The notes beneath the pieces were generated by a model that ran no database searches, was not told the origin of the DNA, and saw nothing but the letters and a program-made list of their open reading frames with translations. DNA of 64,000 bases, taken from a virus. Taxonomy: Duplodnaviria > Caudoviricetes. Positions 22,048 through 62,405 of the stretch are shown one piece after another. Made by a program: the position numbers and the translations under genes. Positions within the stretch are counted from its first letter, which is position 1. Every line of letters starts with the position of its first letter. Location of the stretch: positions 32,001 through 96,000 of the IMG/VR virus record IMGVR_UViG_3300009873_000003, one strand, 5' to 3'.

Positions 22048-22178
22048 CAATCATTCTAACATACTGATTTGCGTTTGTCAAGCTTTCTCGCAGAACCCAC
22101 TAACTCGTGTGAAAGCTTTTTTAAAATGAGTTCTGCGAAAACACTTGACAAGAGTTAAAAGTCGTGATATAATATCAG

Positions 22179-22290
22179 CATCTTCAAACGTTAGAGCACG
22201 TTCGACTTCAGCTTGCCTGTTTGAAGACTACGTCAAAAAGTCCAAACACAAAAAACGACTTAGAGAAATCAATCTCTAAGTCGTTTTTTT
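22179..22290 (+). ncRNA. Dispersed TTCGACTT-loop sRNA cassette, copy 1 (subtype A)
   Basis: TTGACA(22145)-17-TATAAT(22168), TCTTCAAAC/GTTTGAAGA stem, terminator 22250-22290. Confidence 0.75.
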
Positions 22291-22307
22291 GCGTTCTTTC
22301 GCTGCTT

Positions 22308-22634
22308 CTAGAGAAAAACAGACAGCAAGAATTTTAGAACAACTTTCGTTTCAAACATAGATAGCACTATCTCAACGTGGTTGATGTTAAGGTAGAAGTC
22401 GTTGTCTGTTCTTTCTAGTTCGATTGTGACTCGATTAATTTCGATGGTTCGCTTGTCAGACGATTCGTTAGATTCAATCAAAGTGAAGAAGACAGTTCTT
22501 AGCAATTCTAAATCTGCTGATGCGAACAGATAGAAGCGAAAACGCACAGTTTCAGAACAGATGTCAATGTTCAACTTATCAGGTTCTGATGTTAACAGTA
22601 AAAAGTCATCTTGTTTAGTGATTTCTAATTCCAA
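22308..22634 (-). CDS. Hypothetical protein
   Basis: TTG start after GGAGG; packed operon. Confidence 0.6.
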   Translation of the reverse strand: MELEITKQDDFLLLTSEPDKLNIDICSETVRFRFYLFASADLELLRTVFFTLIESNESSDKRTIEINRVTIELERTDNDFYLNINHVEIVLSMFETKVVLKFLLSVFL

Positions 22635-22794
22635 AGTTCAGCCTCCAAAGTACATAGACAGGAATAACGACAGTGAGCAGATAGAAGACAATGATTTGTG
22701 TTGCGCTAACTTGCTTGACGTTGTCTCCAATGATTTCCAACACTTTGTCAACATAGACGAAAATCACAACAACCTTGATTAGCAACTCTAGCAT
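22615..22794 (-). CDS. Small 59-aa membrane protein (absent from the ORF track)
   Basis: MLELLIKVVVIFVYV...IIVFYLLTVVIPVYVLWRLNFGIRNH; overlaps both neighbours as in a coupled operon. Confidence 0.55.
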   Translation of the reverse strand: MLELLIKVVVIFVYVDKVLEIIGDNVKQVSATQIIVFYLLTVVIPVYVLWRLNFGIRNH

Positions 22795-23204
22795 AACTCT
22801 GTCCAGAATTTATAGAACAAAAGACTTGCTTCATTGTCGAGCACAATTGACATATCATTCACGCTGACACGATAAGTATAAGCGTCAGCGAGCGAAATGT
22901 CAAACGCTTGTCCATTGACGATGAAGCTTTCATGTTCTAGCACGCTGTCTAACGCTTGTCTAAAACTACTCACAGTCTCTGGAATGTTGGCTAAGGCAAA
23001 GTTTTGTTCTGTCGTTGCTGTCTGAAACAGAACATAGAAACATTGCGTTCCAACTTGAATTGTCAACGCTTCACACTCAGTGCAGAATTTAAACGTTATC
23101 AAACAGCACACCGTCCCAGTCTTCACAAGCCCAAACAATCGAATTGCCTTGCACATCTGCTTCAACAACGCCTGTCGCATCAAAATAGCCAGCGAAATTG
23201 ACAA
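22788..23204 (-). CDS. Hypothetical protein (true start probably near 23100)
   Basis: ORF fills the gap; the annotated 5' part overlaps the upstream gene. Confidence 0.5.
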   Translation of the reverse strand: MSISLAILMRQALLKQMCKAIRLFGLVKTGTVCCLITFKFCTECEALTIQVGTQCFYVLFQTATTEQNFALANIPETVSSFRQALDSVLEHESFIVNGQAFDISLADAYTYRVSVNDMSIVLDNEASLLFYKFWTELC

Positions 23205-24648
23205 TTTCTGGTTTGTCGTAGCAAGCTGAAATGTTCGTCACAACATTGCCTGATTCGCTCGACTCCATCACAGAAATGAAACTCTTGCCACCGTCTGCGC
23301 TCATCCAAAGCATGTTTATGCCGTGAAAGTTAGTTGCAGCATAAACGATGTCACCATCAACATTCTCTAGTGCTGTCACTGTGCCTAAAATGTTAGCAGA
23401 GCGTTGTACATTCCCTTGACAAACATAGTAGAGGTCATCTTCAACAGCCGCCAGAAACGAGCAGCAAGAGATAGCTTCAACGTGATGCACAATCCCTGCG
23501 CCATTGTTTAGATAGTAAGTTTGCGCAAGCTTTGTGTCGAGGTCTAGTTGTAAAACTCTACCATTGTTTGCAGAGATGAACGCTGTCGAGCAGTCGTCAC
23601 AAATGCTAACATCAGTGTACGAAATGCCTGTCAATGGCAACGTTCTGTTGCGCAAGACTTCATAAGTCTTTGTCGCAGTGTTGTAGAGCACAATGTTCGT
23701 GTCACCAACTAATACAACAATTTGTTCGCAACCGTCAGCAGAAATGAGCCTCTCTCCTGTCGGCAATACTGTTGACGGAATTGTGACTAAACTCGCACCA
23801 AGCGTTGAGCGAATTGTTGAGCCGAAGTTCCCATTCAGATTGACATAGTTAAAGCTCGTCCCATTTCCACCCTGCATGACGTTGCGATTAACAGGTGTAG
23901 CGCAGTCAATTTCATCACAGAAGGCTAAGCTGAACACCCGCCAAACATTCCCATCTGTGCGATAGAGAATTCTTGGCTTGACGCATTCAGCAGCACAACC
24001 ACAGTCTGTGTTACATTTAGCTAATTGAACTAAAAATGTTCCTGATGTGTTTGGACATAGACAGCAACTTGTGTCGCACGTCGTGAAACTGTCAATGATA
24101 GGACCATCAGCAAGGATAGTAGCGACACTTAGCGTAGGTTTGGGTGCAGTGAAGGCGTACATGGTCTCAAAGTTGAAATCAACCGTTTCTGTCACAACAC
24201 CTTGTTCTGATTCTTGCTTAGCAAAGATGTTAGTCAGACTATAGTTCGTCACTTCAATATTTTGCAGCACAATGATGCGTTCAAACTGCGCAAAAACACT
24301 TGGGTCGGTGCAACGCCCAATGTGAATCTGAGCGTCGAACAGACAGCCTTGCTGGTAGAGTTCCTCTAACACACTATTGCCTAAGCTATAGTTTGTCGAG
24401 AATGAACCTGAACCACTTTCTTCTTTCGTTTTGATTTCAGTCACAATGTCGAAACTGTCGTAGCTCGTTGGCGAAGGACAATAGATTTTCTGTCGCTCCG
24501 CCTTACTCTTACTCAAGTCACCTACACTAATGCAAGAATGATAGGTGTAGTCTGAACAGCAGCAGTTCGATTGTGCACGCTTGAGAAAAAGTCTCGTCTG
24601 ATTGTTAATCACAACGTCGGAATTCTTTCTTCTTTTTAATCTTGCCAT
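23089..24648 (-). CDS. Paralogue of the putative tail tube/beta-propeller protein at 6395..7894
   Basis: Shared motifs: Y.Y..C, CP.P..Y..F, GC.FD...H.G.C..P..F..F......V..Y, and S.DGG BNR. Confidence 0.65.
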   Translation of the reverse strand: MARLKRRKNSDVVINNQTRLFLKRAQSNCCCSDYTYHSCISVGDLSKSKAERQKIYCPSPTSYDSFDIVTEIKTKEESGSGSFSTNYSLGNSVLEELYQQGCLFDAQIHIGRCTDPSVFAQFERIIVLQNIEVTNYSLTNIFAKQESEQGVVTETVDFNFETMYAFTAPKPTLSVATILADGPIIDSFTTCDTSCCLCPNTSGTFLVQLAKCNTDCGCAAECVKPRILYRTDGNVWRVFSLAFCDEIDCATPVNRNVMQGGNGTSFNYVNLNGNFGSTIRSTLGASLVTIPSTVLPTGERLISADGCEQIVVLVGDTNIVLYNTATKTYEVLRNRTLPLTGISYTDVSICDDCSTAFISANNGRVLQLDLDTKLAQTYYLNNGAGIVHHVEAISCCSFLAAVEDDLYYVCQGNVQRSANILGTVTALENVDGDIVYAATNFHGINMLWMSADGGKSFISVMESSESGNVVTNISACYDKPEIVNFAGYFDATGVVEADVQGNSIVWACEDWDGVLFDNV

Positions 24649-25410
24649 TTACTTATATTCCCATAGATAATCGGGAGTAGTTGCCGTCCCACCGAACCAA
24701 AAACCTGTGCCGCAATTCCAAGGACCGTTAGCAGCAACCCACGTCAATGCTTCAGCATCTGTCGGATTATTGCTGTCTGCGAACGCTGTGCTAGGAATCG
24801 CTTGATAGGTTAGACACTCATCTGTGGCTAACACACAGAAAGTTTGCTGGAAAGAGTTCGTATTTCCGTTACTATCCGTCACTGTCAACGTCACTGTATA
24901 AGAACCAGCTTGTGAGACTGTGAACGTTGGGTTAGGTGATGTCGTGCTTGAGAACGTCAACGTTCCAGGTCCGGAAGCAGTCCAAGCGTGTGTTAGTGTC
25001 ACACCGTCTTGCGTTGATGTTGACGAGTTGCCATTCAACGAACCGCCCAAAGGTGTTGTCGTGTAGGAAAAGAGGGCAACAGGCAATGGCGTGCCAACAG
25101 CGACACTAAAGTCAATGCCAGCCGCTGTGACAGCGATTATCACACTACCATCTGTCGATGTGAGATTGACAACTTCGTTGCAGCAAATGTCCTGCGAACC
25201 AGAAACTGAACTAAATCTTAAACAACAGCTTCCTTGCGTTGTCCAGTTGGCACTATTGCAAGGGTCCGCTCCTGTCAAAACCCAAATTGAGCCATCCGCA
25301 CCAACAAACGTCGAACCAGGCTGAGCAGAGCTTAGACAAGTGACGGCACAATTAGGAATGTTGAAAACGTCTGAGCTAAAATTACTCTGACAGCACGCCA
25401 TCGTCATCAC
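24649..25410 (-). CDS. Cys-rich PKD/Ig-like domain protein
   Basis: AGSYTVTLTVTDSNG PKD motif; several CC pairs. Confidence 0.65.
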   Translation of the reverse strand: MMTMACCQSNFSSDVFNIPNCAVTCLSSAQPGSTFVGADGSIWVLTGADPCNSANWTTQGSCCLRFSSVSGSQDICCNEVVNLTSTDGSVIIAVTAAGIDFSVAVGTPLPVALFSYTTTPLGGSLNGNSSTSTQDGVTLTHAWTASGPGTLTFSSTTSPNPTFTVSQAGSYTVTLTVTDSNGNTNSFQQTFCVLATDECLTYQAIPSTAFADSNNPTDAEALTWVAANGPWNCGTGFWFGGTATTPDYLWEYK

Positions 25411-25738
25411 CTCCTAACATTTGTTCAGAATAGATGTAGAACTCTGCGACGTCTAAGCGTTCGTCTTTCTCGCTTTCTGCTTCAACCTCGCTAACTAGAT
25501 TTTCATATTCAATATCGTCAAGCACATCTTCAGGCCCAAGTAGGAACTTCTGAAACTCACCATAAGTGTCATTCGTGACAGGTTCAAGGAACCCAGCGTT
25601 CACTGTCTGCTCTTGGCCTGGGACTAACGCAACTCGACTAAACTTATTCGCTTCTCCCCATCCTAAAACTGGAAGATAGGAGATTCGCTTCTCTGCTCTA
25701 TCTAAAAACTTTGCAATTATCATCTTCACTCCAAACAA
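25382..25738 (-). CDS. Hypothetical protein
   Basis: ORF in a packed operon. Confidence 0.55.
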   Translation of the reverse strand: MFGVKMIIAKFLDRAEKRISYLPVLGWGEANKFSRVALVPGQEQTVNAGFLEPVTNDTYGEFQKFLLGPEDVLDDIEYENLVSEVEAESEKDERLDVAEFYIYSEQMLGGDDDGVLSE

Positions 25739-26166: not shown

Positions 26167-26305
26167 TATAACGGTTTTCCTTACTTAATCAAGTTCTAGT
26201 TCGTCAAGCTTTCATGCGTGAAAGCTTGACAAATTATACCGCATGTGCTATGCTTTCAGCAATAAAAACATCAAGAAAAGCTTGTTAAAAAGAAAGTGTT
26301 AAACA

Positions 26306-26968
26306 ATGTACGTAGAATTCACAAATTTTCTAAATGAGCGTGACTTGAACCTAGAACTGCTGTTTAGCTACGGCTCGCAGGTCTATAATCTAGATAATGC
26401 GTCGAGTGACTATGACTTGATGGCTGTCGTGTCGCAGCAACCAGACACCTACCTTGGACTGCACGATGCGAATCGGTCTTGGGGTCACTTCACGCACGAC
26501 AACGTCACTGTGCAATTTCTTGATTTGAAACGCTTCTATCAGCTTGCCGAAAGTAGCAATTTCACGCTCTATGTTGGACTGCGGAATTTGACCTTCACTG
26601 CACCCTTGCAGCTACCGAACCCTCGCACGTTTAGCTTGCGCAAGCTTGCACATCATTGTCTTGGTCTTGTCGATAACAAAAGTCAACGTCAGTATATGAA
26701 GGCATACAGCGCATTGTTCGTCATGTTTCTAGTGCAGAACGGGCATCATCCAGCAAGTCTTGACTATCGCTATCTACTAGACAATGTTCGCTCTGTTCCT
26801 GACAATGTGAAACGGCTGCTCGAACTTAAAAAGACAGGCGAGGCAAAACTCTCTGACGTTGCCGTAAACGCACCGTACACGCACGATGAAGTTAACTTTC
26901 TATCTGACGAAAAACACTCTTATAATGATTTCTGGCTTGATTGGCTGAAGGAGCGCTATGTCTTCTAG
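26306..26968 (+). CDS. Pol-beta superfamily nucleotidyltransferase (RlaP/YcgL-like)
   Basis: YGSQVYNL....SDYD catalytic motif and DLKRF..L...SN; own promoter TTGACA(26226)-17-TATGCT. Confidence 0.7.
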   Translation: MYVEFTNFLNERDLNLELLFSYGSQVYNLDNASSDYDLMAVVSQQPDTYLGLHDANRSWGHFTHDNVTVQFLDLKRFYQLAESSNFTLYVGLRNLTFTAPLQLPNPRTFSLRKLAHHCLGLVDNKSQRQYMKAYSALFVMFLVQNGHHPASLDYRYLLDNVRSVPDNVKRLLELKKTGEAKLSDVAVNAPYTHDEVNFLSDEKHSYNDFWLDWLKERYVF

Positions 26969-28403
26969 TAACGTTTGGTCGAACTACGACTACCTTGAAC
27001 AAAACATCGAAGTGCGTATGATTCTTGACTCGCTTCGTGAATCGAACGGCACAAGAGTTTCAACAATGCTCTGGCGTGTGCCAAGATTTCTGTTACCGCA
27101 ACTGAACACTTACAGAACATTTTCAAGAAATGTTTCAAGCTGTTTGACTGGCGACAACGAACTCTACTTCGACAAACCAGTTGCTATTGCTAAAGGTAAA
27201 CGCTTTCTCAACAAAGTGTCTTTAGACACGCTCTATCGAAAATGGACCTACGGCAATTCGATAGGCAGAACTCAGAAACATGTCGTCCGTGCACTGTGTT
27301 TGCGTTGTTACGATTTCGACAAAAATGAATTTAAACACACCCATATTCGTGACATTCGTTATGAAGGCTTGAAAGAGGTCTACAAAGTAACATTCTCTAA
27401 CAAATTCACGCTAACCCTAACAAGCGACCATCGTCTACTAACCACAGAAGGTTGGAAGACGCTGCAAGACTACGGTTTACATGTTAAAGCTGACGGTCAG
27501 TGCGAATGGAACGAAGGACCGAAAATTGCTGCCAACGAAAAGCTAACGAAACCAAGTGGCCCTCATCCACGCTGGGTGAGAATTAGAAATATAGAATATG
27601 TTGGTGTTGAAAAAGTCTACGATGTTGAAGTTGAGGACGAAAACGAATCGTTTGTCTGCAATGGCATCGTTGTTCACAACAGTCGTGCTAAACGTTTTTC
27701 TAAAACTGTTTCAGAAGTCCTCGACAATCCATATGTGCCGTACATCTGGCAAGCTGACCATGCTGGAATGCAGACGGAAGAAAGATTAGAAGCTTGGAAA
27801 ACACCGATTGCGAACTTTCTGTGGAATGCTTCAATTCAAACTCAAACCTTTTGGGCTGGCTGTCTCTCAAGATTAGGCGTCTCGAAACAATACACAAATC
27901 GTCTAATTGAACCTTACATGTATGTTGACTATCTCGTGACAGCGAACGATTTTGACAATTTCTTGACGCAACGTGACAGCTTTCACGCTCAATTAGAAAT
28001 CCAAGTGCTTGCCCGTCGCCTACGTCTAGCACTAGAATGCAGCGAACCAACAGTGCTAAAAACGAATGAATGGCACCTGCCGTTTGTGACTAATTCTGAA
28101 AAAGAGAACATGTTTGATGCAATCAGACTAAGTGTTGCACGCTGCGCTCGAACCAGTTATCTTGCACCTAACATTGAAACAGACAAACAAGCTGACTTCA
28201 AGCTGTTCGCACGTTTAGCTAAAGACTATCACCTATCACCTTTTGAACATCAAGTCGTGATGTCAGGAACTTGGGGCGGGAATTTGCAAGGCGTGACACA
28301 ACTTCGCAAAGTTCTCGAAACTCACCTTACCTTCACTGATGGCGTGTTCAATTTGAAAGAGTTTGAAAATTTGTTAATGAATCGTCTTTCTCTGTTCGAC
28401 TAA
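26958..28403 (+). CDS. thyX: Flavin-dependent thymidylate synthase ThyX, intein-containing
   Basis: LNTYRTFSRNVSS^SRA, KQY.NRLIEP, AQLEIQ.LA, SVARCARTSY and H.SPFEH motifs. Confidence 0.85.
   Translation: MSSSNVWSNYDYLEQNIEVRMILDSLRESNGTRVSTMLWRVPRFLLPQLNTYRTFSRNVSSCLTGDNELYFDKPVAIAKGKRFLNKVSLDTLYRKWTYGNSIGRTQKHVVRALCLRCYDFDKNEFKHTHIRDIRYEGLKEVYKVTFSNKFTLTLTSDHRLLTTEGWKTLQDYGLHVKADGQCEWNEGPKIAANEKLTKPSGPHPRWVRIRNIEYVGVEKVYDVEVEDENESFVCNGIVVHNSRAKRFSKTVSEVLDNPYVPYIWQADHAGMQTEERLEAWKTPIANFLWNASIQTQTFWAGCLSRLGVSKQYTNRLIEPYMYVDYLVTANDFDNFLTQRDSFHAQLEIQVLARRLRLALECSEPTVLKTNEWHLPFVTNSEKENMFDAIRLSVARCARTSYLAPNIETDKQADFKLFARLAKDYHLSPFEHQVVMSGTWGGNLQGVTQLRKVLETHLTFTDGVFNLKEFENLLMNRLSLFD
27141..27680 (+). 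mobile_element. Mini-intein (180 aa, no homing endonuclease) in thyX
   Basis: Starts CLTGD, has block B LTLTSDHRLLT, ends VYDVEV....FVCNGIVVHN followed by Ser. Confidence 0.9.
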
Positions 28404-28490
28404 CATTCGTGCTAAACTTGCTGCTGCTCTCTCTGCTCTCAACAATCATTGTCTATGTCTGCCTTGTTGCTGCTAGCAGAGCAGACGAAA

Positions 28491-28523
28491 AATCCCGCCG
28501 TAAGTTTAGAAAACGGCGGGATT
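28491..28523. terminator. Hairpin between convergent genes
   Basis: AATCCCGCCGT/ACGGCGGGATT inverted repeat. Confidence 0.6.
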
Positions 28524-28554
28524 ATGGCTGACGCCAGACAGCTATGGCTGAAGC

Positions 28555-29673: not shown

Positions 29674-29779
29674 TCCTTTTTAAATTAGCGTCTTGAACCT
29701 TAGCATAGCATTCTAACAAGCAGTTTTCAATTTCGCTCAAATTCGTGCTTGACAAAGTGTTGAAGATGGGATAGGGTTA

Positions 29780-29896
29780 AGTCACTCTCAAACGTCAGTA
29801 GTAAGTTCGACTTCACCTTAACTGTTTGAAGAGCGATTTAAAAAAGTCACACAAGTTTTGTCTGATTCTTGTTAAAAATCAGACATTTTTCTTTTT
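29780..29896 (+). ncRNA. Dispersed TTCGACTT-loop sRNA cassette, copy 3 (subtype B)
   Basis: TTGACA(29749)-17-TAGGGT, CTCTCAAAC/GTTTGAAGAG stem, TGTCTGATT/AATCAGACA terminator. Confidence 0.7.
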
Positions 29897-29938: not shown

Positions 29939-30256
29939 ATGCCTCAATTCTATGTCGCTTTTCTAAAAACTGAAGAAAAAATGTTAGAAGCAGGTATTGT
30001 GACGAAATTTGAAGCTATCACAGTGACACCTGTCATCAAGTTCGCAGACGTTCCTGCAAGCGAATCGTTCCCTATTGTCGCTGTTCGAGCACCTGCTGGT
30101 GTGCGCTTTCTTCTTTCGAGTCACACGCATGTCGTCAACGAGCTTGGCACAATTGCTGATACTGTTAGCGCAGAACATCTGCAACAAATGCTTCGCTTCT
30201 TTGAAAGTTGGGCTGCTTCCTCACCAGCAACAAGAGAGTTAAAACTAGTACGTTAA
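29939..30256 (+). CDS. Hypothetical protein
   Basis: ORF with AAGG upstream. Confidence 0.55.
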   Translation: MPQFYVAFLKTEEKMLEAGIVTKFEAITVTPVIKFADVPASESFPIVAVRAPAGVRFLLSSHTHVVNELGTIADTVSAEHLQQMLRFFESWAASSPATRELKLVR

Positions 30257-32584: not shown

Positions 32585-33094
32585 ATGGCAAGAATTATTG
32601 AAACAAACGAAGTTAGTCCAAGTGTTGAAAGAGACGGAATTGTCGAAGTGGCGAGTGTTGCATCACAGCCTGTTCCAAACAATGTTGTGACGTTGTCATC
32701 AGGCGTGCGGGTGCAATTTCTTGGAACATTGCCGCCGACAATCTCACAGCAGATTGTTGTCACCACGTTCCAGAATGCGAACCTAGATGCGAATGGTGGC
32801 GTGAAGCAGAACATGACATCAATGGAGCAATTGCGCCTAGCGAACCAAATGTTCGACTACAATCGCTCGATTCTGTCTTTCGCTCTAGCAAGAAAACTCA
32901 TCAAGCTTTACGACGGCTTGCCAGCAGATGCGGACTGGTTGGAGTTATTGAAAGTTAACCCGCAAATCCGTCAGGCGATGCCAGACTTGAACTTCAGCAA
33001 TCGCTTTCATCAAGAGCTTCTCTACATGCTTTACTATGCCTTCATGAATGAAGATGACATCGCTCTAATTAGTGAAAAGCTGTTGAATCGCTAA
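32585..33094 (+). CDS. Putative tail assembly chaperone
   Basis: GAGGG RBS; position upstream of the tape measure. Confidence 0.45.
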   Translation: MARIIETNEVSPSVERDGIVEVASVASQPVPNNVVTLSSGVRVQFLGTLPPTISQQIVVTTFQNANLDANGGVKQNMTSMEQLRLANQMFDYNRSILSFALARKLIKLYDGLPADADWLELLKVNPQIRQAMPDLNFSNRFHQELLYMLYYAFMNEDDIALISEKLLNR

Positions 33095-33117: not shown

Positions 33118-33229
33118 AAAAAAAACGACTTAGAGATTGATTTCTCTAAGTCGTTTTTGTGTTTGGACTTTTTGACGTAGTCTTCAAAAAGGCAAGATGA
33201 AGTCGAACGTGCTATAACATTTGAAGATG
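33118..33229 (-). ncRNA. Dispersed TTCGACTT-loop sRNA cassette, copy 2 (subtype A)
   Basis: TTGACA(33258-63)-17-TATAAT(33235-40) on the minus strand; near-identical to copy 1 including the terminator. Confidence 0.75.
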
Positions 33230-33292
33230 CTGATATTATATCATTTCTTTTCGTTCTTGTCAAGCATTCTCGCATCATCTATAATGAAATTC

Positions 33293-39700: not shown

Positions 39701-42700
39701 TGCGAAACGCTCTGATTGCACTGGCAACTGTGTTAACGGCTGGTGGCATTGCGTTGAAAATCAAGGGCATTGCGTTAGCGGTTGGAGCGTTGCTCACGCC
39801 GTTTAATCTAGCTGTGGTTGCTGTCACTTTGCTTGGCAGTGCGATTTTCACATTTGTGCAGCAGTCAGGTGGCTTCAGTCAGACGATTCAACGCATTGGT
39901 GATGCCTGGTCAGGGTTAACGAGTGCCTTTTCTAATTCAGCAACAGGTGGTGAGGCGGCCTTAGACTTTAGCAGCTTTGAAGGCGTTGCAAGCAGCATCG
40001 GCACTGTGCTTGGACAAGCGTTTAGTAGTGTGAAGGAAAAATTCACGAAGTTTTATGATAATCTTTCGCTTGCTTGGCAAGGTGCAATCACAAATCTTCA
40101 AACCAGCATTTCTGACACTTGGACGAACTTCACTGGCTTGTTTAGTAAGTTAAGCTTCGACTTGTCTGGTTTGAAGAAGGTTCAAGAGTTCTTCAGTAAG
40201 AATTGGTTAGAAATCATGAGTGGTGTGGCTGATGTCATCATTGGCATCACGCTTGGCCGCTGGCTGCTAATTGTGCGAGGCATTGCGCTAGTCTTGCAGA
40301 ATTTCTCCTTGCCGACCGACGTTTTAACCGAAGTCTTTGTGAACTTCGTCAACAGCATTGACAACTACATCGTCAAACCTGTTGCTGACGCTTTCGCTAG
40401 CAATTCAACCTTGCTAGGTAAGATTTCTGGTGCGCTTAGTAAGTTCTACTATGGCGTGTTGCAGGTGATTTCGACATCAGTGCAAGGTGCGTTCAAACGC
40501 TTTGGTTCAGGCAAGTTTCTAGCAAATCTAAACAATTTCTTTGACAACACAGCAATTGGCAAGGCAGTTGAACGGAACCTAAATGAAGCTGTTGTCAACA
40601 TTGTGCCAAATCTTAGCGCTAGCTTCGACTTGAGCACTTTCATCAATCAGATGTTTGCGCAGTTTGGTAACGCTGTTGCTGCTGTCAAGGCGTTTGTTAG
40701 TGACATCAAGGCAGCGTTCTCAACTGGCATTTTGGCGAACATTCTAAACGAAAACAAAAGTGCATTCAGTGAGTTCATTAGTGAAATCACCTCGCCAGCC
40801 TTCCTACAATCGTTAAGCACAATTGGCAAGGCACTAGGTATTGTTGCTGGTGCTGTGCTAGCGTTGGGCGCAGCAATCATTGATGTTGCGCTCGTTGGTG
40901 TGTTGCGGAACATTGCCGACCTTTTCATTGTCGTTGGACAAGGGTTGGATAGAGTTTTCGCTGGTTTCCAGCAACTCATCTCAGGCGACGTGCTTGGCGG
41001 TGTGAGTGAAATCTTTGGCGGCATCTTTGATGTGGTCAACGGCGTGTTTGACACGATTGGGCAGACTGTGGCTGACACTGTGCTGGCAATGGTTTCCTTC
41101 TTCAATCCAGAGTGGGCGAAAACACTTGACCCAATCGTTTCGGCAATCTCTAAAATCATTGTTGGTTTCTTAGGTTGGCAAGGAACGTTCACTAAGGTTT
41201 TCTCTGCACTTGGCGGTTTCTTCTCTAGACTTCTGCCTTGGTTTTGGAAAACGCAGAAGGCAACACAAGGCACAACGTCGCTTTTCTCTAAATTCCAAAC
41301 CATTCTGGCACCATTCAAAACAGTCGTCGCAAACGTTGGCAATGCGTTCAAGAACGGTGTCACTAATCTGCAAAAGTTTGGCGAAACGGTCCCTTATCTT
41401 AGAGGCGTTCTCTCTGCGCTCTATCGTGTGCTAGAAGTCTTGGCTAGTCCTCTAAAGCCGCTTTACGCTGGCTTGCAGAATTTAATTAGTGCGTTCGGCG
41501 GTGCCAATGTCACAGGCTCATTCCTTGGCACAGCGTTTGAGAGGTTGAAGTCTGGTCTCGGATTGTTGAGTGAAGCGTTCGCTTTAGTCTGGTCGTGGGC
41601 TAAGACGGCATATAGCGCTTTCGTTGGCCTTGCTGCACCTGTCCAACAATTCTTTTTAAGCATTGGTCGTGCCGCTGCTTCACTCCTGCGTTTTGTTGAT
41701 TCAATCCTTGGTGCTGTCGCTCACTCAACCGTTCTGCGCACAGTCATCACCTGGGTTGCGGATGTTTTCACAGCAATTTTAGGTGTGTTTAGAGCAGTTG
41801 GCTTGGCGCTATTCTCTGTCGGTCGCTGGTTCTTCAATCTGACAGCGAATGTGTTGGCGGCGCTTAAGCCACTGGAGACAGTGAAAGCGCTGATTCAAGG
41901 TTTGACGCTGTTCGTTTCATTCCTTGGTTCGGCCCTAAGTCGAGCTGTTGTCAACGTTTTAGCGTTTGGAACAACGCTCTACACAGCAGTAAATGACGGC
42001 ATCCAAAGTCTTTTGGCAATGGACTTTGTGCAACAGTTCATCACATGGTCAAGTGGGTGGGTTGATGCCATTTGGACAGGGCTAGCGACGTTTGTCACCA
42101 GTCTGCCTGAGAAAATCACATCGTGGACAACAGCGTTCACTGAATGGCTGGCACCAAACTCTCCGCCCAAGTTCCTGCCAGAATTAGCTAACTGGGGAAA
42201 GGCGATTGCTTTAGTCTTGTTGCAAGCGATGGTCGATGCGCCATTAGATTTAATCACAACGCTTGGCACGAACATTGGCACTGCGATTTTAACTTTTGAT
42301 TGGCTTCAGTTTGCGACAGAATTAGGCACGAAGATTAGTGGCTTATTCACATCGGCGATTGCCACAGTCGTCGCCATTCCAACCACGCTAAGTCAATTTG
42401 TGAATGTGACAGAGACAGAGGAAGGTGAGTTCGCTCAAAACATTCGTGACGCCTTGCCGAACTTTGATGCTGTTTTTGGCGAAGGTGTTAACGAGAAAAT
42501 CAGTGTTGGCTTAGCCGACCTTGTCACATTCAATCAAGCTGAAATCTCAACTGCGACTGACTACTTTAAGCAATTCTTTGACGCTCTGGTTGGCTTTGCA
42601 AATGTTCAAGCCATTCCTGAAGCGTTCACGACAAGTCTCTCGACCATCATCGGCTTCTTCCAGGGAGACATCACATTCCCTGAAGCGATAAAAACAGTGG

Positions 42701-51308: not shown

Positions 51309-51352
51309 GCGTGAACGCTTGACAAACGTTTCATTCTGTGTTAGAATGTCTC

Positions 51353-51427
51353 TATAACAAACATCTAAAACATTAAAGTTCTTCTTGGGAAACGCTCCTA
51401 GCGAAATTAATCGCTAGGAGCATTTTT
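51353..51427 (+). ncRNA. Tandem sRNA unit 1
   Basis: TTGACA(51319)-17-TAGAAT, no ORF, GCTCCTAGCGA/TCGCTAGGAGC terminator. Confidence 0.55.
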
Positions 51428-51465
51428 GTTGTTGACAATTTAACAAGCGTATGGTTTAATAGCGT

Positions 51466-55752: not shown

Positions 55753-55799
55753 TGTTCACACAGACAACCTTAAATTTTTGAGCCAATTGCGTTATGAAG

Positions 55800-58220
55800 C
55801 TAGGCTAAGACTTTGAAGAAGCGAATTTGACCGTAGTGCTCTGGTTCGTCATCACGACGGTTAATGTTCATCTTCAACTGCAAGCGCACCAAATCACCAA
55901 CTTGAATCTCGTTGATACGTTCGAGCGTGGTCGAAGCGTGAACATTTTTCGTCAGCATATGTTTAACGTCAGGTTCCATCATGGCGAACCAGTACGCCTT
56001 GCCTGATTGAAATTTAATCTTGCGCTGTGGCGTGCCACCTTTCGACACTTTGTCATAGATTTCCACAACATACCCGATGCGTTCGTCTTCACGGTTAGCC
56101 ACATCTGCGATAATCTGTTTCAAATTTGTTGGCAAGGCGAACCCAAGTGCTGCCTTAATACCTTCGATTCTAGAAACAGGTTCAGGCAGAGGTTCATAGT
56201 AGCTGACCCGCTTGAAGTTAACGAGCTTGTTCTCTAAAGCGTAGTATTTAATCGTTGTTCCGACTTTCAAATCGTTAATGTCGGGTGCTGGCTTCATCTT
56301 CAAACGCTTTGCTTCAAGCTGAACCTCGACATCACCTTGAGCGAAAGTAAGCTTTGTGCCATCCGTAAGTGCAACACTGTTCCCCTCAAGATTCGCAACT
56401 GTACCAACTTTTGCAACCTCCCACACCATGCCTTTCACGACGAAGTGTTTAATTTCCTGCACACCTAAGTCATACAATGTGCCTGGTAGACCGTCCAGCA
56501 TTCCAGCGTTATAGAGTTTGCGTTTCAACGAAGTGTTAATCTTAACTCTTTGATTAAAGTCAGCTAGCGAAGCATATGGTCCGTTTGCCTCACGTTCTGC
56601 GACAATACTTTGCATCACGTTGACGCCAAGCCCAACTACAATGTCAATCGGGCAATAGATTGACTTACGGTCTGGCGAAATCACGTACTGTGATGTTGCT
56701 ACATTCACATGCGGTGGAACAATGTTGATGCCGTAGTTGACAATCGCTTCAACAATGTAGCGCAGCAACTTCTCCCTGTCATTCGCATTATTTTCTTGAT
56801 TATTCAAGAGAACGGTCCAGAATGCCTCTGGATAATGATGCTTAAACCAAGCTTGCTGCGCAGACAGGTTGGCGTAGGCGAGGGCGTGGCTTAAGTTGAA
56901 ACCGTAGCGGATGAAGCCATCTAGCGATTTGAACAGTGTTTCGAGATAGAGTTTGTCAAAGCCATGCTTCAATCCTCCCTCGATGAACATTTTGTGCAGC
57001 TTCTCGTAGCCCTTCTGAAACTTTTCCGTTGCCGCCACTTTCTGATTCTTAGGCACGAGACTTTTCAAAGCGACAATGCCATACTCTTTAGCGTGTGAAT
57101 CATAGGTTTGGAAAGCAACCTTCGCAAAAAGCTCTGCCACTTGCTCCTGGTAGATTAAAACGCCACCAGTTTGTTCAAAGATTTCTCTAATCAGCGGCGG
57201 ATGGATAGAGAGGTCTGCATCACGCTTAGCATAGGCGATGTGAAACTCTTGCTGCAAGGGTCCAGGTCTGCCAAGCGACGTGATGTCTGCTAGAATGCGA
57301 ATTGTGTTAATTGGACGATTGTTCTCGTTCATTAACGCAACAACTTTTTTAGCAGTGTTTGTATCGAACTGAAAAAGTCCAGTCACATCGCCAAGTTCAA
57401 ACATTTTTAAACAAGGGTCATCGTCAGCAATCTCCTTCGGCGCTTCGACACCAGTCAATTTCTCTAGTAGCGCAATTGAATCAAGTGTCTCACTCGATAA
57501 GAAGTCGTATTTGACGAAACCACAATATTGCAAGGTCTTATCGCTACCACTTTCCGTATAGGCAACAGACGATTCCGAAGCGAAGCTCTCAAATGGCACT
57601 GGCATTGACGCACGCAAAGGCACAACTGCACAAGCATGACGACCGTAACCTGCTCTTGCTCCATTCAACTTTTCATAAAGGTCTTCAGCCCAATTCTGTG
57701 GGAAGCCTTCAAAATGCGTCAGATTCATGAAACGCTTGAACGCTGCGTTCTCAAATGGGGCATCAGGGTCAGCGTCCGAAGCTTCATCAACAATCGACTT
57801 CGGAATGCGAATGTTCGCAATTTTGAACACAATGCGTTCGATTAAGCGAACAATGCTTGAGTGCGAATATGTCAACAACGTTCCAACCGGCTCGAAACCC
57901 CATCGTTCCTTAGCATATTCTTGAACAATGTGACGACCACTTGCAGCAATGTCGATGTCAATGTCAGGTAGCTCGCCTGTTTCTAGACGAAGCTCAGCAA
58001 GGAAGCGCTCGAACATTAAATTGTGCTTCAATGGGTCAAGTTGCGAACCACCTGCCAAGTACCACAAATACGAGCCACTCGCCGAGCCACGGCTAATCAT
58101 CTTCACGCCATGCCGTTGCCCATGTCGAATGATATCAGTTAGAACGGCGAAGTAGGGAAGAAAATTGTATTTCTTAAGCAACTCAAGCTCACGATTGAAG
58201 CGTTCGATTTTAGTTTCCAT
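55800..58220 (-). CDS. dnaE: DNA polymerase III alpha, catalytic part (split DnaE)
   Basis: RGSASGS, FERFL, PDIDID, KYDFL, GLFQF, RPGP, YQEQ and YGFN.SHA..Y motifs. Confidence 0.9.
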   Translation of the reverse strand: METKIERFNRELELLKKYNFLPYFAVLTDIIRHGQRHGVKMISRGSASGSYLWYLAGGSQLDPLKHNLMFERFLAELRLETGELPDIDIDIAASGRHIVQEYAKERWGFEPVGTLLTYSHSSIVRLIERIVFKIANIRIPKSIVDEASDADPDAPFENAAFKRFMNLTHFEGFPQNWAEDLYEKLNGARAGYGRHACAVVPLRASMPVPFESFASESSVAYTESGSDKTLQYCGFVKYDFLSSETLDSIALLEKLTGVEAPKEIADDDPCLKMFELGDVTGLFQFDTNTAKKVVALMNENNRPINTIRILADITSLGRPGPLQQEFHIAYAKRDADLSIHPPLIREIFEQTGGVLIYQEQVAELFAKVAFQTYDSHAKEYGIVALKSLVPKNQKVAATEKFQKGYEKLHKMFIEGGLKHGFDKLYLETLFKSLDGFIRYGFNLSHALAYANLSAQQAWFKHHYPEAFWTVLLNNQENNANDREKLLRYIVEAIVNYGINIVPPHVNVATSQYVISPDRKSIYCPIDIVVGLGVNVMQSIVAEREANGPYASLADFNQRVKINTSLKRKLYNAGMLDGLPGTLYDLGVQEIKHFVVKGMVWEVAKVGTVANLEGNSVALTDGTKLTFAQGDVEVQLEAKRLKMKPAPDINDLKVGTTIKYYALENKLVNFKRVSYYEPLPEPVSRIEGIKAALGFALPTNLKQIIADVANREDERIGYVVEIYDKVSKGGTPQRKIKFQSGKAYWFAMMEPDVKHMLTKNVHASTTLERINEIQVGDLVRLQLKMNINRRDDEPEHYGQIRFFKVLA

Positions 58221-59154
58221 TGCACAAATCTCTTTCTAACGCCTGTTGCCAGAAGGAGAGCAACTCTTCGACTTCTTTATCTGCTGGCGGCAGCTCGAAA
58301 TGGTGTTTAAACTCAACAATGCCGTCAGCTTCAATCTTTCTGACGATTTCGTCAATGCCACGAAACGCCTTTAACGCACGCTCTAAACCGATTAATGAAA
58401 CCGCTTCGTCAAACATTTCCTCCGCTGACTGAATGAAACCAGCCGTGAAACTATAGCCCTTTGTCGCTTTGGTGTAGATTTCTAACAGCGGTAAATCTTT
58501 TTTTGTTGCTGCATGAAAATCATTCGTCCAGACTGTGTTCAAGTCAAACCTATCGGCAAGTTTGAGTGGTCGTTCGTAGCTGTTCAAACCGCTCGAAATT
58601 TCATGCGCCTGCACTTCAGCGTAGACGTTTCGTTTCCCGAATGTTTTTAGTAGAAAGTCGATGTATTCGTGAGCGATTGTCTCTTCAGAGTGAAACGTGA
58701 CGCTCGCTACGCAGCCTGTCAAAACAATCAAACCTTCACCTGCAACTTCACGCAACATGTCAAACGTTGCAATCGGATACTTTGCACCACGTGACACTTC
58801 AATGTTCTGATGTGCGAAATTGTTTAGAGCAATTAATCTATCGTAACCGCTCTTACCTGAAGATAAGACGGTCATGTGGTAGCGACCAGACTTAGAATTG
58901 TCAGAACGTTCGTCTAAATGTGCTGGAAGACGAAGATAAATCTCTGTACCAAGCAGAGGCACAATGCCGTTCTCCTTACAAGATACAGAGTGCGCAACTA
59001 AGCCTGAACATGTGCCGTGGTCCGTTATACCTAAACCATGAAGTTGTTTGCTAACTGCTGCTGCAACGTTTTGAGAGATTTGGCTAAAACCGTCGCTTCG
59101 GTCGGAATGACCATGAAGTGAAGCGATTTTTAAGTCTCGAAGATGTTCGCACAT
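58210..59154 (-). CDS. dnaE: DNA polymerase III alpha, N-terminal PHP domain (split DnaE)
   Basis: LHGHS..SDG, ITDHG, G.EIY, LTGC and TNDFH motifs. Confidence 0.88.
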   Translation of the reverse strand: MCEHLRDLKIASLHGHSDRSDGFSQISQNVAAAVSKQLHGLGITDHGTCSGLVAHSVSCKENGIVPLLGTEIYLRLPAHLDERSDNSKSGRYHMTVLSSGKSGYDRLIALNNFAHQNIEVSRGAKYPIATFDMLREVAGEGLIVLTGCVASVTFHSEETIAHEYIDFLLKTFGKRNVYAEVQAHEISSGLNSYERPLKLADRFDLNTVWTNDFHAATKKDLPLLEIYTKATKGYSFTAGFIQSAEEMFDEAVSLIGLERALKAFRGIDEIVRKIEADGIVEFKHHFELPPADKEVEELLSFWQQALERDLCNGN

Positions 59155-59171
59155 TTGTGTTGACTTTCTAG

Positions 59172-59285
59172 AAAAGAAAAATGTCTGATTTTTAACAAGA
59201 ATCAGACAAAAACTTGTGTGACTTTTTGAAGCTTCTCTTCAAACAGCTAAGATGAAGTCGAACTTACTAAAAACGTTTGAGAGTA
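59172..59285 (-). ncRNA. Dispersed TTCGACTT-loop sRNA cassette, copy 4 (subtype B)
   Basis: TTGACA(59314-19)-17-TAGAAT(59291-96); same core and terminator as copies 3 and 5. Confidence 0.75.
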
Positions 59286-59315
59286 ACTTTATTCTATCAT
59301 CAAAGTCAGCGTTTG

Positions 59316-59783
59316 TCAAGCGTTCTCACAATTTTTCCCAAGCTTAACAATTTTGAAGTCAACGATGTCGATGAGTTTCAGATTCTTAGCACACAACCAC
59401 ACGCCAACCGCATCAACTTCGTCTAGTGTGAAAATCGTGTTGTGCTGTGCTCGAAGTTGAATCTGTAATTCTCGTGTTCCAGCCTTGCTTTGGAGCAGAC
59501 TCAGATTTTTGCGCCAAGTGCCAGGGTGAATCCAGTTGACATCGACGCCATCTTCAACGAAACGATGATAAACGTAACCGTAACGCTGAGCCAAATTGAC
59601 TAAAATCTTTGGTTGGCGTGAGTTATACGAAACGAGTTCTTCAATTACAACGCTATCGTATTTCAAGTTCTTCTTGAGCCACGCATATTGAAACACTGGT
59701 GTGCCAACAACTGTGCCGATGTGTAATGTCTTGCGTTTATCAAAACAAACTCCACACGTTGTGGCTAAATCTAGTGCAAGCAT
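59316..59783 (-). CDS. RuvC-like Holliday junction resolvase
   Basis: MLALDLA...G, VIEE, P.TWRK and DEVDA motifs. Confidence 0.7.
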   Translation of the reverse strand: MLALDLATTCGVCFDKRKTLHIGTVVGTPVFQYAWLKKNLKYDSVVIEELVSYNSRQPKILVNLAQRYGYVYHRFVEDGVDVNWIHPGTWRKNLSLLQSKAGTRELQIQLRAQHNTIFTLDEVDAVGVWLCAKNLKLIDIVDFKIVKLGKNCENA

Positions 59784-59849
59784 TTTCGCCTCGACGTTTA
59801 GCAATCGACGTTGACTTGGCCGATTGCTAAACGTTTTTATTTAGACCGA

Positions 59850-60926
59850 TTAGAACGGAATGTCTGAGCCAAGGTCGATGACCTTTTTCTCTTTGATAGC
59901 GCTCTCTGGGATTTGAGTGTTTTGCATATCGACAGAGTATTGCGGAATCAGTGAAATGAACAGTTCGTTAATCTCGTCTACACTCATTCCACTTTCAGCA
60001 TCAATTTCACCCCAACCGACCAGCAATTTTTCAGCAATTGCTGCGTGCACCCGACTGCTGGCAGTCGCCGCATCAATTTTGCCAGCCAACAGTTCATCAA
60101 TCGCAGACTGATAGAAGTTGTAGCGCTTAGCGATGTGGTCAATCATCTTCACATATTCGACGTCAGAAACGCTACTGAACGTCTTGGTCCAATCGTTAGG
60201 GTCAATGGTGTCAAGTAGCGTGAGTGAATTGCGCTCCTTCATGTCTGCTTTCGGGTCTTTGGTGTACTGGACCACGAATAAGCGGTCAGGATTCGGCGTG
60301 ACCCGTTGCTTCCGTAAGACTTGCGTGATTTGCTTATCATAAACGTTGATTGCGCTCATCAACGATTCGTAGTGGTAGAAGCTAAGTTCAAGCCACACCA
60401 ACTCGCCCGACTTCGTGTCAATATCGCCACTGTCGAGCACCTTCACGTTCCAGATGACAGGGATGCGCACAGTTTGCGTGTAGGGTTCAATCATCGTGTA
60501 AATGCCATCGGGAGCGCCGTGCAGACCAGGCTGCTTCTTTTGAGCGTCTTGCTTCAGCGTCAGACCAAGCGCCACACCAGGGTCGTCAAAAATGTCACCA
60601 TCAGCGATGCGCAAATTACTATCTGCCCACATTTCAGAACGCCACATCAATTGCGGCACGCCATTAACATACGGCTTTTCTGGATTCGGTTGCGACCACG
60701 AGTACTTGAAAATCTGGAATCGTGCTGCCACTGTGTTCAGGCCAGCGACATCAAAATGCGAACCATCTTCGCCAGGAACGAAACGACCAAGCGGCACAAA
60801 GGCGGTCTGAAAGAACTGCTTATACGCCTTACCCTTTTCGGTCAGACCAAGCGATTTGAAATTGATGACGGGAATGTTGACTTGCTTGTTTTGTACAATT
60901 TGTCCTGCGTGAGTTTTGAGAGCCAT
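59850..60926 (-). CDS. Putative single-stranded DNA-binding protein
   Basis: Replication-module position and the acidic C-terminal tip SDIPF typical of SSBs. Confidence 0.5.
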   Translation of the reverse strand: MALKTHAGQIVQNKQVNIPVINFKSLGLTEKGKAYKQFFQTAFVPLGRFVPGEDGSHFDVAGLNTVAARFQIFKYSWSQPNPEKPYVNGVPQLMWRSEMWADSNLRIADGDIFDDPGVALGLTLKQDAQKKQPGLHGAPDGIYTMIEPYTQTVRIPVIWNVKVLDSGDIDTKSGELVWLELSFYHYESLMSAINVYDKQITQVLRKQRVTPNPDRLFVVQYTKDPKADMKERNSLTLLDTIDPNDWTKTFSSVSDVEYVKMIDHIAKRYNFYQSAIDELLAGKIDAATASSRVHAAIAEKLLVGWGEIDAESGMSVDEINELFISLIPQYSVDMQNTQIPESAIKEKKVIDLGSDIPF

Positions 60927-61062
60927 AGTTTGTTTAACCTTTGTTTGAAGAAATTTGAAAGAAGTTGTTGTTGTTGATGATTAGCTTAGCTTGCAAATTA
61001 AGCGCTACATTTCGTCTACATGGCACACCGTCCTGGCTAATAGTCAACTTAGAGATTAAAGC

Positions 61063-61130
61063 AGTTCGCATTTAAACGTGAGAAATTATCGGTTTCTTGT
61101 TTTTTTGTTTTGCTGTTAGCGAACTTATGT
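61063..61130 (-). ncRNA. CTAACAGCAAA-stem RNA with anticodon-arm-like hairpin
   Basis: TTGACA(61159-64)-17-TATACT; AGTTCGC/GCGAACT stem; AGAAA-CCGATAA-TTTCT hairpin. Confidence 0.6.
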
Positions 61131-61179
61131 TTAAGAGTATACATCAGCACTTGCTGTTTGTCAAGCTTTCTCGCAGACT

Positions 61180-61362
61180 TTAACGCCAACGATGTTTTTC
61201 AAAATCCTTGGAGATTCGGTTAAATCGTCTAACCGCTATAATACTAGCGACTACCCAAGCGACGAAAGTTGCTACAGACACAGCGATTAGTACGTACACT
61301 AAGAAAGTTAAAGCGTTTGCTAATTCTGGACTCATGTCTAACTCCATAAATGTGTGAACCAC
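61180..61362 (-). CDS. Small single-TM protein
   Basis: Hydrophobic helix with a basic tail; packed operon. Confidence 0.5.
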   Translation of the reverse strand: MVHTFMELDMSPELANALTFLVYVLIAVSVATFVAWVVASIIAVRRFNRISKDFEKHRWR

Positions 61363-61685
61363 TTACCGAACAATTCGCATCCCTCTTGCACAAATGCAGC
61401 ATTCTCAGGTGTTGGTGCGGGCCAGTCGTCTTCGCTGGCAATGATTGTGAATGCGTGAATCATTTTATCTAGAATCTCGTCCCATTCTTCCGCAGTGATT
61501 GAAGCGGGATAAGATTTACAACCTTCACGAAACGCAATTAGTCGAGGTAAAGTGAATTGTGCAATTGTCGTGTAGAGCGACCACCAGTCAGTGTCGTCAA
61601 AGCCTCGTTGCGCAAGTTGAACGTCGTATTTCGCAATGCGTTCAGGGGCCATGCTCTGCCAGTTGTCTAAGTCTTTGTATGACAT
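61338..61685 (-). CDS. Hypothetical phage protein
   Basis: AAGGAG RBS; W.L..TIA...PRL..F...EW..ILD.MI.AF pattern common in phages. Confidence 0.65.
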   Translation of the reverse strand: MSYKDLDNWQSMAPERIAKYDVQLAQRGFDDTDWWSLYTTIAQFTLPRLIAFREGCKSYPASITAEEWDEILDKMIHAFTIIASEDDWPAPTPENAAFVQEGCELFGKWFTHLWS

Positions 61686-61694
61686 TTCTGCTCC

Positions 61695-62105
61695 TTATTC
61701 GTTTGCTAAAAACAGCTTTTCTTTCGCTCTAGTTACAGCAACATATTCTAGGTTCTGCTCTTGCTGCGCCTGCCAAGCGAGCTGACCTTTATATTTGATA
61801 CGAATGATTGTAAAATACTTGTTTTCGTCAACTCTAATTTTCCGCACCTTGGAGAGCAATTTCATTCCAGACGCATGAAGCGTTTTTGCATCAGCTTTAT
61901 CGCCAAGCCTCGAACCAAGTTCTGTCGCAATGTGTTTGTTGAAAGTGGCGAAGAGTACAGATTGTCTGGTGTCAAGCTCATTCACAATCTGAACAAGCGT
62001 TGTCGTCTTGCCAGAACCGGCAACAGCACTGACAGCAAGATTAGCATCTGTGTTGCGCACGTTGTCGAAAATGTGCGTTTGATAACTTGACCAGTTCATG
62101 CTCAT
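61695..62105 (-). pseudogene. Internally deleted UvrD/Rep-like helicase (136 aa)
   Basis: Motifs I (AVAGSGKTT), Ia (FNKHIA) and Ib (KTLH) are joined directly to motif VI (NL.YVAVTRAK); motifs II-V are absent. Confidence 0.7.
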
Positions 62106-62163
62106 CGCTGCGCCTTTCTGTTTAGTCTTTATAGAGGTCTTTTAAAAGCTTAAGATATTGAAG

Positions 62164-62277
62164 AAAGAAAAAATGTCTGATTTTTTTCAAGAATCAGACA
62201 AAACTTGTGTGACTTTTTTTAATCGTCTCTTCAAACAGGTAAGATAAAGTCGAACTTACTTAAAACGTTTGAGAGTG
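62164..62277 (-). ncRNA. Dispersed TTCGACTT-loop sRNA cassette, copy 5 (subtype B)
   Basis: TTGACA(62306-11)-17-TATAAT(62283-88); perfect GTAAG/CTTAC inner stem; terminator. Confidence 0.75.
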
Positions 62278-62405
62278 ACTTGATTATAACACTAGAGTCA
62301 GCGTTTGTCAAGCTTTCACACAACGTTTAAGCTCAATTTCAGAATCGAACTGAAATCTACTGCTTACAAGGCAGTTGTTTTACCGTTAAACTAATCGAGC
62401 ATTTT

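Follow-up and report, generated by a model that had tools for sequence, protein, structure and literature searches.

To our knowledge, few phage-encoded structured RNAs have proven folds, and most phage intergenic RNA is unannotated. Early structured RNAs and leaders are already known as a kind among phages. RNA-based antitermination from an element placed just before a terminator has been documented for put (PMC9378689), and the conAn2 RNA element, located just upstream, is sufficient to suppress an ordinary terminator (PMC8191782); in the conAn system, stems of at least 14-15 bp resist processive antitermination, ordinary stems being 7-9 bp long (PMC10325885). The toxI-type loci and a phage mimic of them share a layout of pseudoknots, repeats, promoter and terminator (PMC3475682, PMC3401426). 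The element described here is a promoter-RNA-terminator cassette of an uncultured phage (Duplodnaviria; Caudoviricetes) from activated sludge and wastewater, IMG/VR virus record IMGVR_UViG_3300009873_000003 (114,335 bp; 44.7% G+C; estimated 92% complete); the window, that is, the whole stretch of 64,000 nt that was analysed, comprises bases 32001-96000 of this record. The genome holds six copies of the cassette (c1 to c6) and two variant cassettes. Covariation shows the core of about 70 nt to fold, as judged by comparison with units of four uncultured relatives, as an H-type pseudoknot. The fold, the multi-copy modular layout and a second module that follows many of the units are new here. As in put, nut and conAn2, a structured RNA stands just downstream of an early promoter and is followed by terminators and genes, and, as with putL/putR and nutL/nutR, there are several copies per genome and a split between short-stem and very-long-stem terminators. 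Unlike put and nut, the cassette has an H-type pseudoknot closed by an outer helix instead of two stem-loops or boxA plus boxB, with no sequence or model match to them; unlike put, nut and conAn2, it also occurs in standalone form facing convergent genes, and read-through is here a hypothesis. The cassettes likewise recall lambda 6S RNA (pR'-tR'), oop RNA and the T4 band C/D RNAs, where a short transcript from a constitutive promoter ends at a terminator in front of phage genes or between them, but those RNAs are single-copy and have neither this fold nor a multi-copy family.

Each unit is 65-75 nt long and is closed by an outer stem, P0, of 7-11 bp, whose sequence changes throughout while the pairing is kept. 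P0 is followed by an asymmetric internal loop that ends in A-G on its 5' side and in N-C-U on its 3' side, and then by an inner stem, S1, of 4 bp, in which pairs 2-4 covary and the last pair is always G-C; the conserved G before S1 lies opposite A in six units, C in four, U in three and G in two, with no set partner. The 11 nt that appear to be the loop of this hairpin pair with a strand that is preceded by an A-tract and lies 20-22 nt downstream of the inner stem. The loop opens with UUN, and its next 5-10 nt form the pseudoknot with the strand directly after the A-tract, so that the first of the pseudoknot loops is U-rich and the third is A-rich. The invariant features, namely the A-G before S1, the closing G-C pair, the UU at the start of the loop, the first G-C pair of the pseudoknot, the C-U after S1 and the A-tract, cluster at the junction of the two helices.

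The window alone could not have established this pairing: its loops (GACUU(U)) can pair with (A)AAGUC, but all window copies share one sequence and are therefore uninformative. Within the window genome there is a single covarying inner pair, the other positions being invariant or mismatched, which is not significant by itself; an earlier note, made from the window sequence, had given this pair as C-G in copies 1-2 and T-A in copies 3-5, and it is in fact C-G in c1, c3 and c6 and U-A in c2, c4 and c5. The covariation that the note proposed to look for in a larger alignment appears once relatives are added (12 and 15 units), and it extends over three helices including the pseudoknot. Loop and tail pair in relatives as GUCAUU/AAUGAC, GCACUU/AAGUGC, GUCUU/AAGAC, GUCGUU/AACGAC, GUUUCAUU/AAUGAAAC and GGUUU/AAACC, and in a cross matrix of loops against tails the cognate pairs match best. 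When the pseudoknot helix is anchored at loop position 4, which is always G, positions 1-5 are free of mismatches over 15 units, with AU, UA, CG and GC pairs at position 2, CG, AU and UA at position 3, and UA, UG, AU, CG and GC at position 4. In a model-made alignment of 12 units, three tails of which are one or two columns out of register, both-sided changes occur in 12 of 18 pairs and 88.8% of the cells are paired, versus 26-55% with the partner slid; none of 500 shuffles reached the values observed.

In its architecture the core resembles the preQ1-I and SAM-II RNAs, which likewise have a stem of 4-5 bp, a U-rich loop start that pairs with a tail after an A-tract, and invariant nucleotides at the junction. 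In the cassette, by contrast, the 3' arm of an additional outer helix lies between stem and tail; Rfam gives no match at E<=10, an alternative antiterminator is not recognisable, standalone copies occur, and the downstream genes share only an early/replication theme. Examined as a possible riboswitch, the core is aptamer-like and its tail is contiguous with the CAAG of the second module; inspection showed no alternative pairing, the downstream genes are mixed and some copies stand alone.

The relatives compared were obtained from a protein collection and from a JGI metagenome scan with the PHP protein, the latter being the source of L163. They are scaffold_335 in ENA (L077, L159 and L165; DNA polymerase III alpha 65% identical), a 43.7-kb Logan contig (L078 and L162; polymerase III alpha 67%), a 130-kb JGI contig (L160; ThyX 57%), a 5.9-kb JGI contig (L163; PHP subunit 77%) and a 7.7-kb Logan contig (L168; polymerase III alpha 66%, with PHP and polymerase fused), and they have a gene order in common with the window. 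A protein-guided polymerase search of IMG/VR, with single sequence and with alignment, gave no close relative, only matches of <=30% identity without units. In L077 a unit at 8935-9006 lies directly upstream of the PHP gene, i.e. in the position of c4, behind a promoter of the cassettes' class and ahead of a 12-bp terminator. In L159, matches to the covariance models R1 and R2 (built from six cassette cores and from 14 units, respectively) occur at 14668, 16396, 16602 and 16672, and by reading the sequence these units are seen to form tandem pairs (14668+14738, 16396+16465 and 16602+16674) whose helix sequences differ. Scaffold_335 has six units in one intergenic region and none at the positions of c1, c3, c5 and c6. 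The unit R8 (L162:6737) shares position and orientation with c3 and is standalone, with a 16-bp bidirectional terminator, and more diverged units with a small extra 5' hairpin are found upstream of the PHP gene at L163:4458 and, flanking a TnpB gene, at about 12790 and 14440 of L160. The L168 contig ends inside units: its standalone end unit still has the second-module hairpin, and at its PHP position the hairpin and terminator are present, the upstream part being cut off. In L078 no unit intervenes between a promoter of the same kind and the PHP gene directly behind it. L159 and L160 retain, where c3 would lie, early-class promoters that lead into a long bidirectional terminator, again with no unit, and the unit is for this reason regarded as a module that may be present or absent behind such promoters. 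The TnpB (Cas12f1-like_TNB) gene occupies the c2 position, between two cassettes, in L159 (14832-16385) and L160 (12949-14391), whereas the window genome has none. The idea that the units are TnpB guide (omega) RNAs was rejected for this reason and because they have their own promoters.

In the window genome, the six copies differ in their linker and terminator and can be assigned to subtype A (c1 and c3) or subtype B (c2, c4, c5 and c6). The five units of promoter, core and terminator that the earlier note had placed in the window were all confirmed, with the same coordinates and strands, by alignment and by R1 (83-95 bits), and when aligned they agree in an invariant TTGACA that is spaced 17 nt from a TAnnnT box, in a core of ~74 nt and in a hairpin with a T-run behind it; the count of five was too low, since a sixth copy lies outside the window and the two variants come in addition. 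Cassette c1 (22145-22290, plus strand; standalone; 83.4 bits) consists of a promoter at 22145-22173, the RNA core at 22178-22250 and a bidirectional terminator of 17 bp at 22250-22289, and it faces the end of a convergent minus-strand operon. Cassette c3 (33118-33263, minus strand; standalone; 83.6 bits) has its promoter at 33263-33235, its core at 33230-33158 and a 16-bp bidirectional terminator at 33158-33121; it is oriented divergently from the tape-measure operon and convergently to a plus-strand open reading frame (ORF) at 32585-33094. Cassette c2 (29749-29896, plus strand; 91.9 bits), with its promoter at 29749-29777, core at 29782-29855, CAAG at ~29852-29855 and second hairpin, which doubles as terminator, at 29859-29885 (loop CUUGUUAAA) before a T-run, sits 43 nt upstream of a co-directional ORF that starts at 29939; none of the five ORFs downstream belongs to a known family. 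The claim that copies 1 and 2 face convergent genes therefore held for copy 1 and failed for copy 2, and it is copy 3 that shares this placement, so that a position unsuited to a leader is found for copies 1 and 3 only, and the other four of the six each stand just ahead of a gene on their own strand.

Cassette c4 (59172-59319, minus strand; 94.4 bits; promoter 59319-59291, core 59286-59213, hairpin 2/terminator 59208-59182) precedes the gene for the PHP subunit of DNA polymerase III alpha (start 59154), which is followed by those for the polymerase subunit, DnaB and primase. Polymerase III alpha is here split (55800-59154, minus strand) into PHP (314 aa) and polymerase (806 aa) ORFs that overlap by 11 nt; the split is also found in L077 and L078, and the protein is fused (~1120 aa) in L168, L170 and more distant relatives. 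Cassette c5 (62164-62311, minus strand; 94.3 bits; promoter 62311-62283, core 62278-62204, hairpin 2/terminator 62200-62174 with loop CUUGAAAAA) has its promoter directly behind a tRNA-Thr gene (62330-62400), and a helicase-remnant ORF starts at 62105. This 136-aa 'helicase' (61695-62105, minus strand) is the remnant of an internal deletion and corresponds to residues 1-98 plus 460-495 of a UvrD-type helicase of 495 aa in L077; a complete helicase is encoded elsewhere in the genome (about 2124-3629). Cassette c6 (G000:C1 ~99,340-99,492, equal to L003:3340-3492; minus strand) lies 3.3 kb past the window, upstream of NT5C-like and MazG-like genes. The two variant cassettes (L003:15600-15850 and L003:14400-14595, at 111833 and 110578 of the genome; minus strand) have an early-class promoter and a terminator with CAAG and the second hairpin, and differ in their 5' pseudoknot domain, which has a GC-rich inner stem of 6 bp (GCCCUA/UAGGGC), the loop UGUGAC and the tail GUCAC. 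The variant at 110578 appears degenerate, and that at 111833 precedes the gene of a protein that, by eye, carries GGAVRD, a motif characteristic of CCA-adding enzymes and poly(A) polymerases. Throughout, the gap between terminator and start codon in the gene-proximal cassettes leaves no room for a second promoter, and terminator stems are 8-9 bp in these cassettes versus 14-17 bp in standalone and operon-end ones. No toxin or defence families were found by Pfam and PADLOC among the ORFs downstream of the cassettes. By minimum free energy folding alone, subtype B does not stand out (z -0.5 to -1.2), the energy model being blind to the pseudoknot. Inside the 3911-aa tape-measure ORF (~40100-40180, plus strand), a 12-bp inverted repeat (TCTTCAAACCAG / CTGGTTTGAAGA) around TAGTAAGTT..CGACTT looks like a unit; it is scored by neither covariance model and was set aside as probably chance or a relic.

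The second module consists of CAAG, 2-5 mostly U residues and a hairpin (hairpin 2) with the loop CUUG(U/A)(U/A)AAA. It is present in c2, c4, c5, c6, both variant cassettes, L160, L163 and both ends of L168, and it is missing from the standalone c1, c3 and R8 of L162. Compensatory changes affect six of the nine stem pairs of hairpin 2, which none of 500 shuffles equalled, and the loop and CAAG never vary. CAAG could pair with the CUUG of the loop to form a second H-type pseudoknot, there being no variation to judge by; in L077 the same two tetramers form a nested extension of the terminator stem. The T-run after hairpin 2 in subtype B predicts that this hairpin doubles as the terminator, and in L163 and L168 a separate strong terminator stands behind it. 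The 3' strand of the pseudoknot and CAAG are contiguous, 0-2 nt apart.

The promoter is not exclusive to the cassettes; it is one of about 17 early-class sites in the genome, as found by a scan for TTGACA-N16-18-TAnnnT with GYGWGAAAGC upstream (GYGWGAAAGC-TTGACA-17-TAnnnT). Six of these sites carry the pseudoknot RNA, two carry the variant and six drive ORFs directly, without a terminator, e.g. that at 26226 of the window ahead of the RlaP-ThyX genes; several of the remaining sites are predicted to give short ORF-less transcripts into long bidirectional terminators at the junctions of convergent operons. Two such ORF-less sets of promoter, RNA and terminator, without a pseudoknot unit, lie in the window at 21905-22081 (minus strand; promoter 22081, back to back with c1) and at 51319-51430 (plus strand; long bidirectional terminator). 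The ThyX-type thymidylate synthase gene (26958-28403, plus strand) is interrupted by an intein, relatives' versions being longer and containing an HNH domain, and the gene immediately upstream of ThyX encodes an RlaP-type nucleotidyltransferase in all relatives. A repeated leader, (A)GTTCGCTAACAGCAAA, occurs behind early-class promoters beside tRNA genes (61136-61164 and 63780-63808, minus strand) and is kept in scaffold_335 (L165:7620-7720 and 9290-9370), whose tRNA array is larger.

The searches set the family apart from described RNAs. Apart from the six cores, whose R1 scores of 83-95 bits (E about 1e-15 to 1e-17) far exceed chance, the 114-kb genome has no match to R1 above E 0.3, and there is none in 632 kb of viral contigs that are unrelated but have a short motif in common. 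Rfam 15, even at E<=10, showed no overlap of the cassettes with any family, only three tRNAs passing, and ARAGORN likewise called these three tRNAs and no cassette. Two units compared by blastn with 50,697 phage records gave no match. An exact DNA pattern search of IMG/VR returned nothing, and a gapped pattern returned 73 single matches, none of which scored with the covariance model; these are chance matches. A descriptor of the structure matched four times in 1.95 Mb of unrelated phage contigs, which is the chance level (one per 542 kb in shuffled sequence). The sole RNA-labelled (metatranscriptomic) run was whole-genome amplified and available as contigs only, none of which covers the cassettes, and it is therefore uninformative on expression. 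Together with the compensatory changes, the lack of an Rfam match supports the earlier note in its proposal of an autonomous family, new to Rfam, of promoter-RNA-terminator units in which selection acts on the RNA.

The reading preferred here, to which a probability of roughly 0.4 is given, is that of an RNA gene whose product is recognised by its shape and acts in trans at high dose, with weak terminators that leak into replication genes. Each cassette would be a complete gene for a non-coding RNA of ~110 nt. Host RNA polymerase of the sigma-70 type would start at the early-class promoter, a few bases before P0, as its consensus suggests, and would halt at the cassette's own intrinsic terminator. 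The RNA, abundant early, would then act in trans, most probably by binding a protein or a small ligand. Recognition by shape, rather than by antisense pairing, is favoured because the helices drift while the geometry, the A-tract and the junction nucleotides stay fixed. In subtype B, the terminator of 8-9 bp may pass a fraction of the transcripts into genes for replication and nucleotide metabolism, which would be coupled to, and damped by, the RNA gene. Action in trans is indicated by the standalone c1, c3 and R8 of L162, which end in bidirectional terminators of 16-17 bp facing convergent genes. It is also suggested by the six to eight units per genome in the window phage and scaffold_335, situated in different places, by the tandem pairs and by the structured ends, and, in the same direction, by the relative L078, which runs its polymerase operon without a unit, by the crowding of six units into one intergenic region of a relative, and by the standalone unit of L168 that retains hairpin 2.

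Several points weigh against an RNA gene acting in trans. Four of the six copies, and most of the relatives' units, stand directly before co-directional genes that have no other promoter, and the position before the PHP and polymerase genes is kept in at least three lineages (window, L077 and L163), with a truncated equivalent in L168, as would be usual for a cis-acting leader; the terminators there in L077 and L163 are 12-13 bp long and not obviously leaky. The c3 position without a unit in L159 and L160 means that the standalone promoters may serve another purpose. There are in addition a U.U mismatch in P0 of c3 and a C.U mismatch in S1 of c1 and c3, and the promoter, the start site, the terminator and the RNA length of ~110 nt are all predictions.

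The strongest competitor, possible though somewhat less probable, is a leader acting in cis by antitermination or attenuation, like lambda nut, HK022 put or conAn2, in which the nascent pseudoknot, with or without hairpin 2, would cause read-through of the short-stem terminator. Such a leader would act alone or with a phage or host protein, the modified polymerase would still be stopped by the long stems of operon-end terminators, and the operons so gated would be delayed-early ones (PHP/polymerase III alpha with DnaB and primase, helicase, nucleotidase/MazG and a CCA-adding-like enzyme), other early promoters being left ungated. The layout speaks for it: the order promoter, element, terminator and gene, with no second promoter, recurs in c2, c4, c5, c6, the two variants, L077, L163 and L160; the promoters form two tiers, 6 of the 17 driving genes without a terminator; and terminator stems are divided into short gene-proximal and long operon-end or standalone ones, the latter in the range that resists processive antitermination in the conAn system. 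The contiguity of the pseudoknot's 3' strand with CAAG would also suit a coupled switch. A leader does not readily account for the standalone units that face convergent genes (c1, c3, and those in L162 and L168b), for tandem pairs placed in series in L159, or for the PHP gene of L078, which lies behind a promoter without a unit. Inspection moreover showed no terminator and antiterminator pairings that exclude each other, no candidate for an antiterminator protein emerged, and the Rfam searches show no likeness to put, boxA-boxB or EAR. The RNA gene acting in trans is placed slightly ahead of the leader because the units are optional at several positions and also occur at sites from which antitermination would lead nowhere. 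The two models do not exclude each other, and subtype B may do both.

A more specific form of the RNA gene acting in trans, rather improbable as it stands, is an aptamer or decoy made in bulk after infection that soaks up a component of host defence. A defence nuclease, an RNA-binding sensor or a nucleotide second messenger can be imagined as its target, the RNA being a counterpart of protein 'sponges'; tandem and dispersed copies would then set the dose, and the diversified helices would prevent neighbours from misfolding together. A decoy that mimics a type III antitoxin RNA (pseudo-ToxI-like) and neutralises a host endoribonuclease toxin is less probable still. Like ToxI, CptI, TenpI and phage pseudo-ToxI, the cassettes are phage-borne, pseudoknotted units with A-rich linkers, in multiple copies, single in the window and tandem in L159, with a promoter before and a terminator after. 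They differ in being about twice as long, ~70 nt with a nested outer stem that encloses the hairpin, versus near-identical repeats of 34-45 nt, and in having helices that diverge between units, and no ToxN-, AbiQ-, CptN- or TenpN-like gene was found downstream by Pfam and PADLOC.

It is equally hard to credit that the units are mobile elements resembling miniature inverted-repeat transposable elements (MITEs), or sites read in DNA (an operator or a recombination site), and not RNA. They are dispersed on both strands at positions that vary among relatives, assemblies break or cross at them and L168 ends inside them, and c6 is flanked by a direct repeat matching at 14 of 15 positions, TGCGAA(G/T)CGATTGCT, which did not arise in any of 500 shuffles. 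The terminal inverted repeats of a MITE are absent, however, and the flanking repeats of the other seven cassettes are at chance level, so that no general target-site duplication, which the earlier note had named as refuting its proposal, was found. All units are in the sense direction behind a promoter, and the compensatory changes keep an RNA pairing, including that of the pseudoknot, that would be meaningless in duplex DNA. Contigs of other sludge and wastewater assemblies break off, cross over or diverge right at the cassettes, at 59168-59333 and 62120-62324 of the window; these joints are assembly crossings at repeated units and not rearrangements. Because such repeats break short-read assemblies, the numbers of units counted in metagenomic contigs are probably too low.

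Least probable of all, and contradicted by the comparison with relatives, is the mimicry of a tRNA T-loop or of a CRISPR repeat that the earlier note had put forward from the UUCGA of the window loops and the GUUUGAAGA after the hairpin: relatives have UUAGA, UUCGU, UUCGC or UUUGU, the would-be A58 (loop position 5), which the U-U-N-R-A of a T-loop would fix as A, varies between A, U and C, being the second pair of the pseudoknot and changing together with the tail, neither ARAGORN nor the Rfam tRNA model calls a tRNA, and the supposed CRISPR handle (GTTTGAAGA) belongs to the outer stem as its 3' arm, where relatives have, in place of GUUUGAAGA, UUUAAGAGG, UGAUUGA, UAUUGAAUAAG, GUUGAUAGG or others that in each case complement the 5' arm of the same unit.

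The whole early programme of this phage seems to be built around short structured transcripts, with a clear two-tier layout of terminators. If the element is one of antitermination, it would represent a new structural class and a timing device like that of lambda N in an unrelated phage lineage; if it is a binder that acts in trans, it would add an RNA-based tool for host takeover or anti-defence. In either case, the family is defined well enough, by its model, its boundaries and the mutations that would break and restore its helices, for direct testing.

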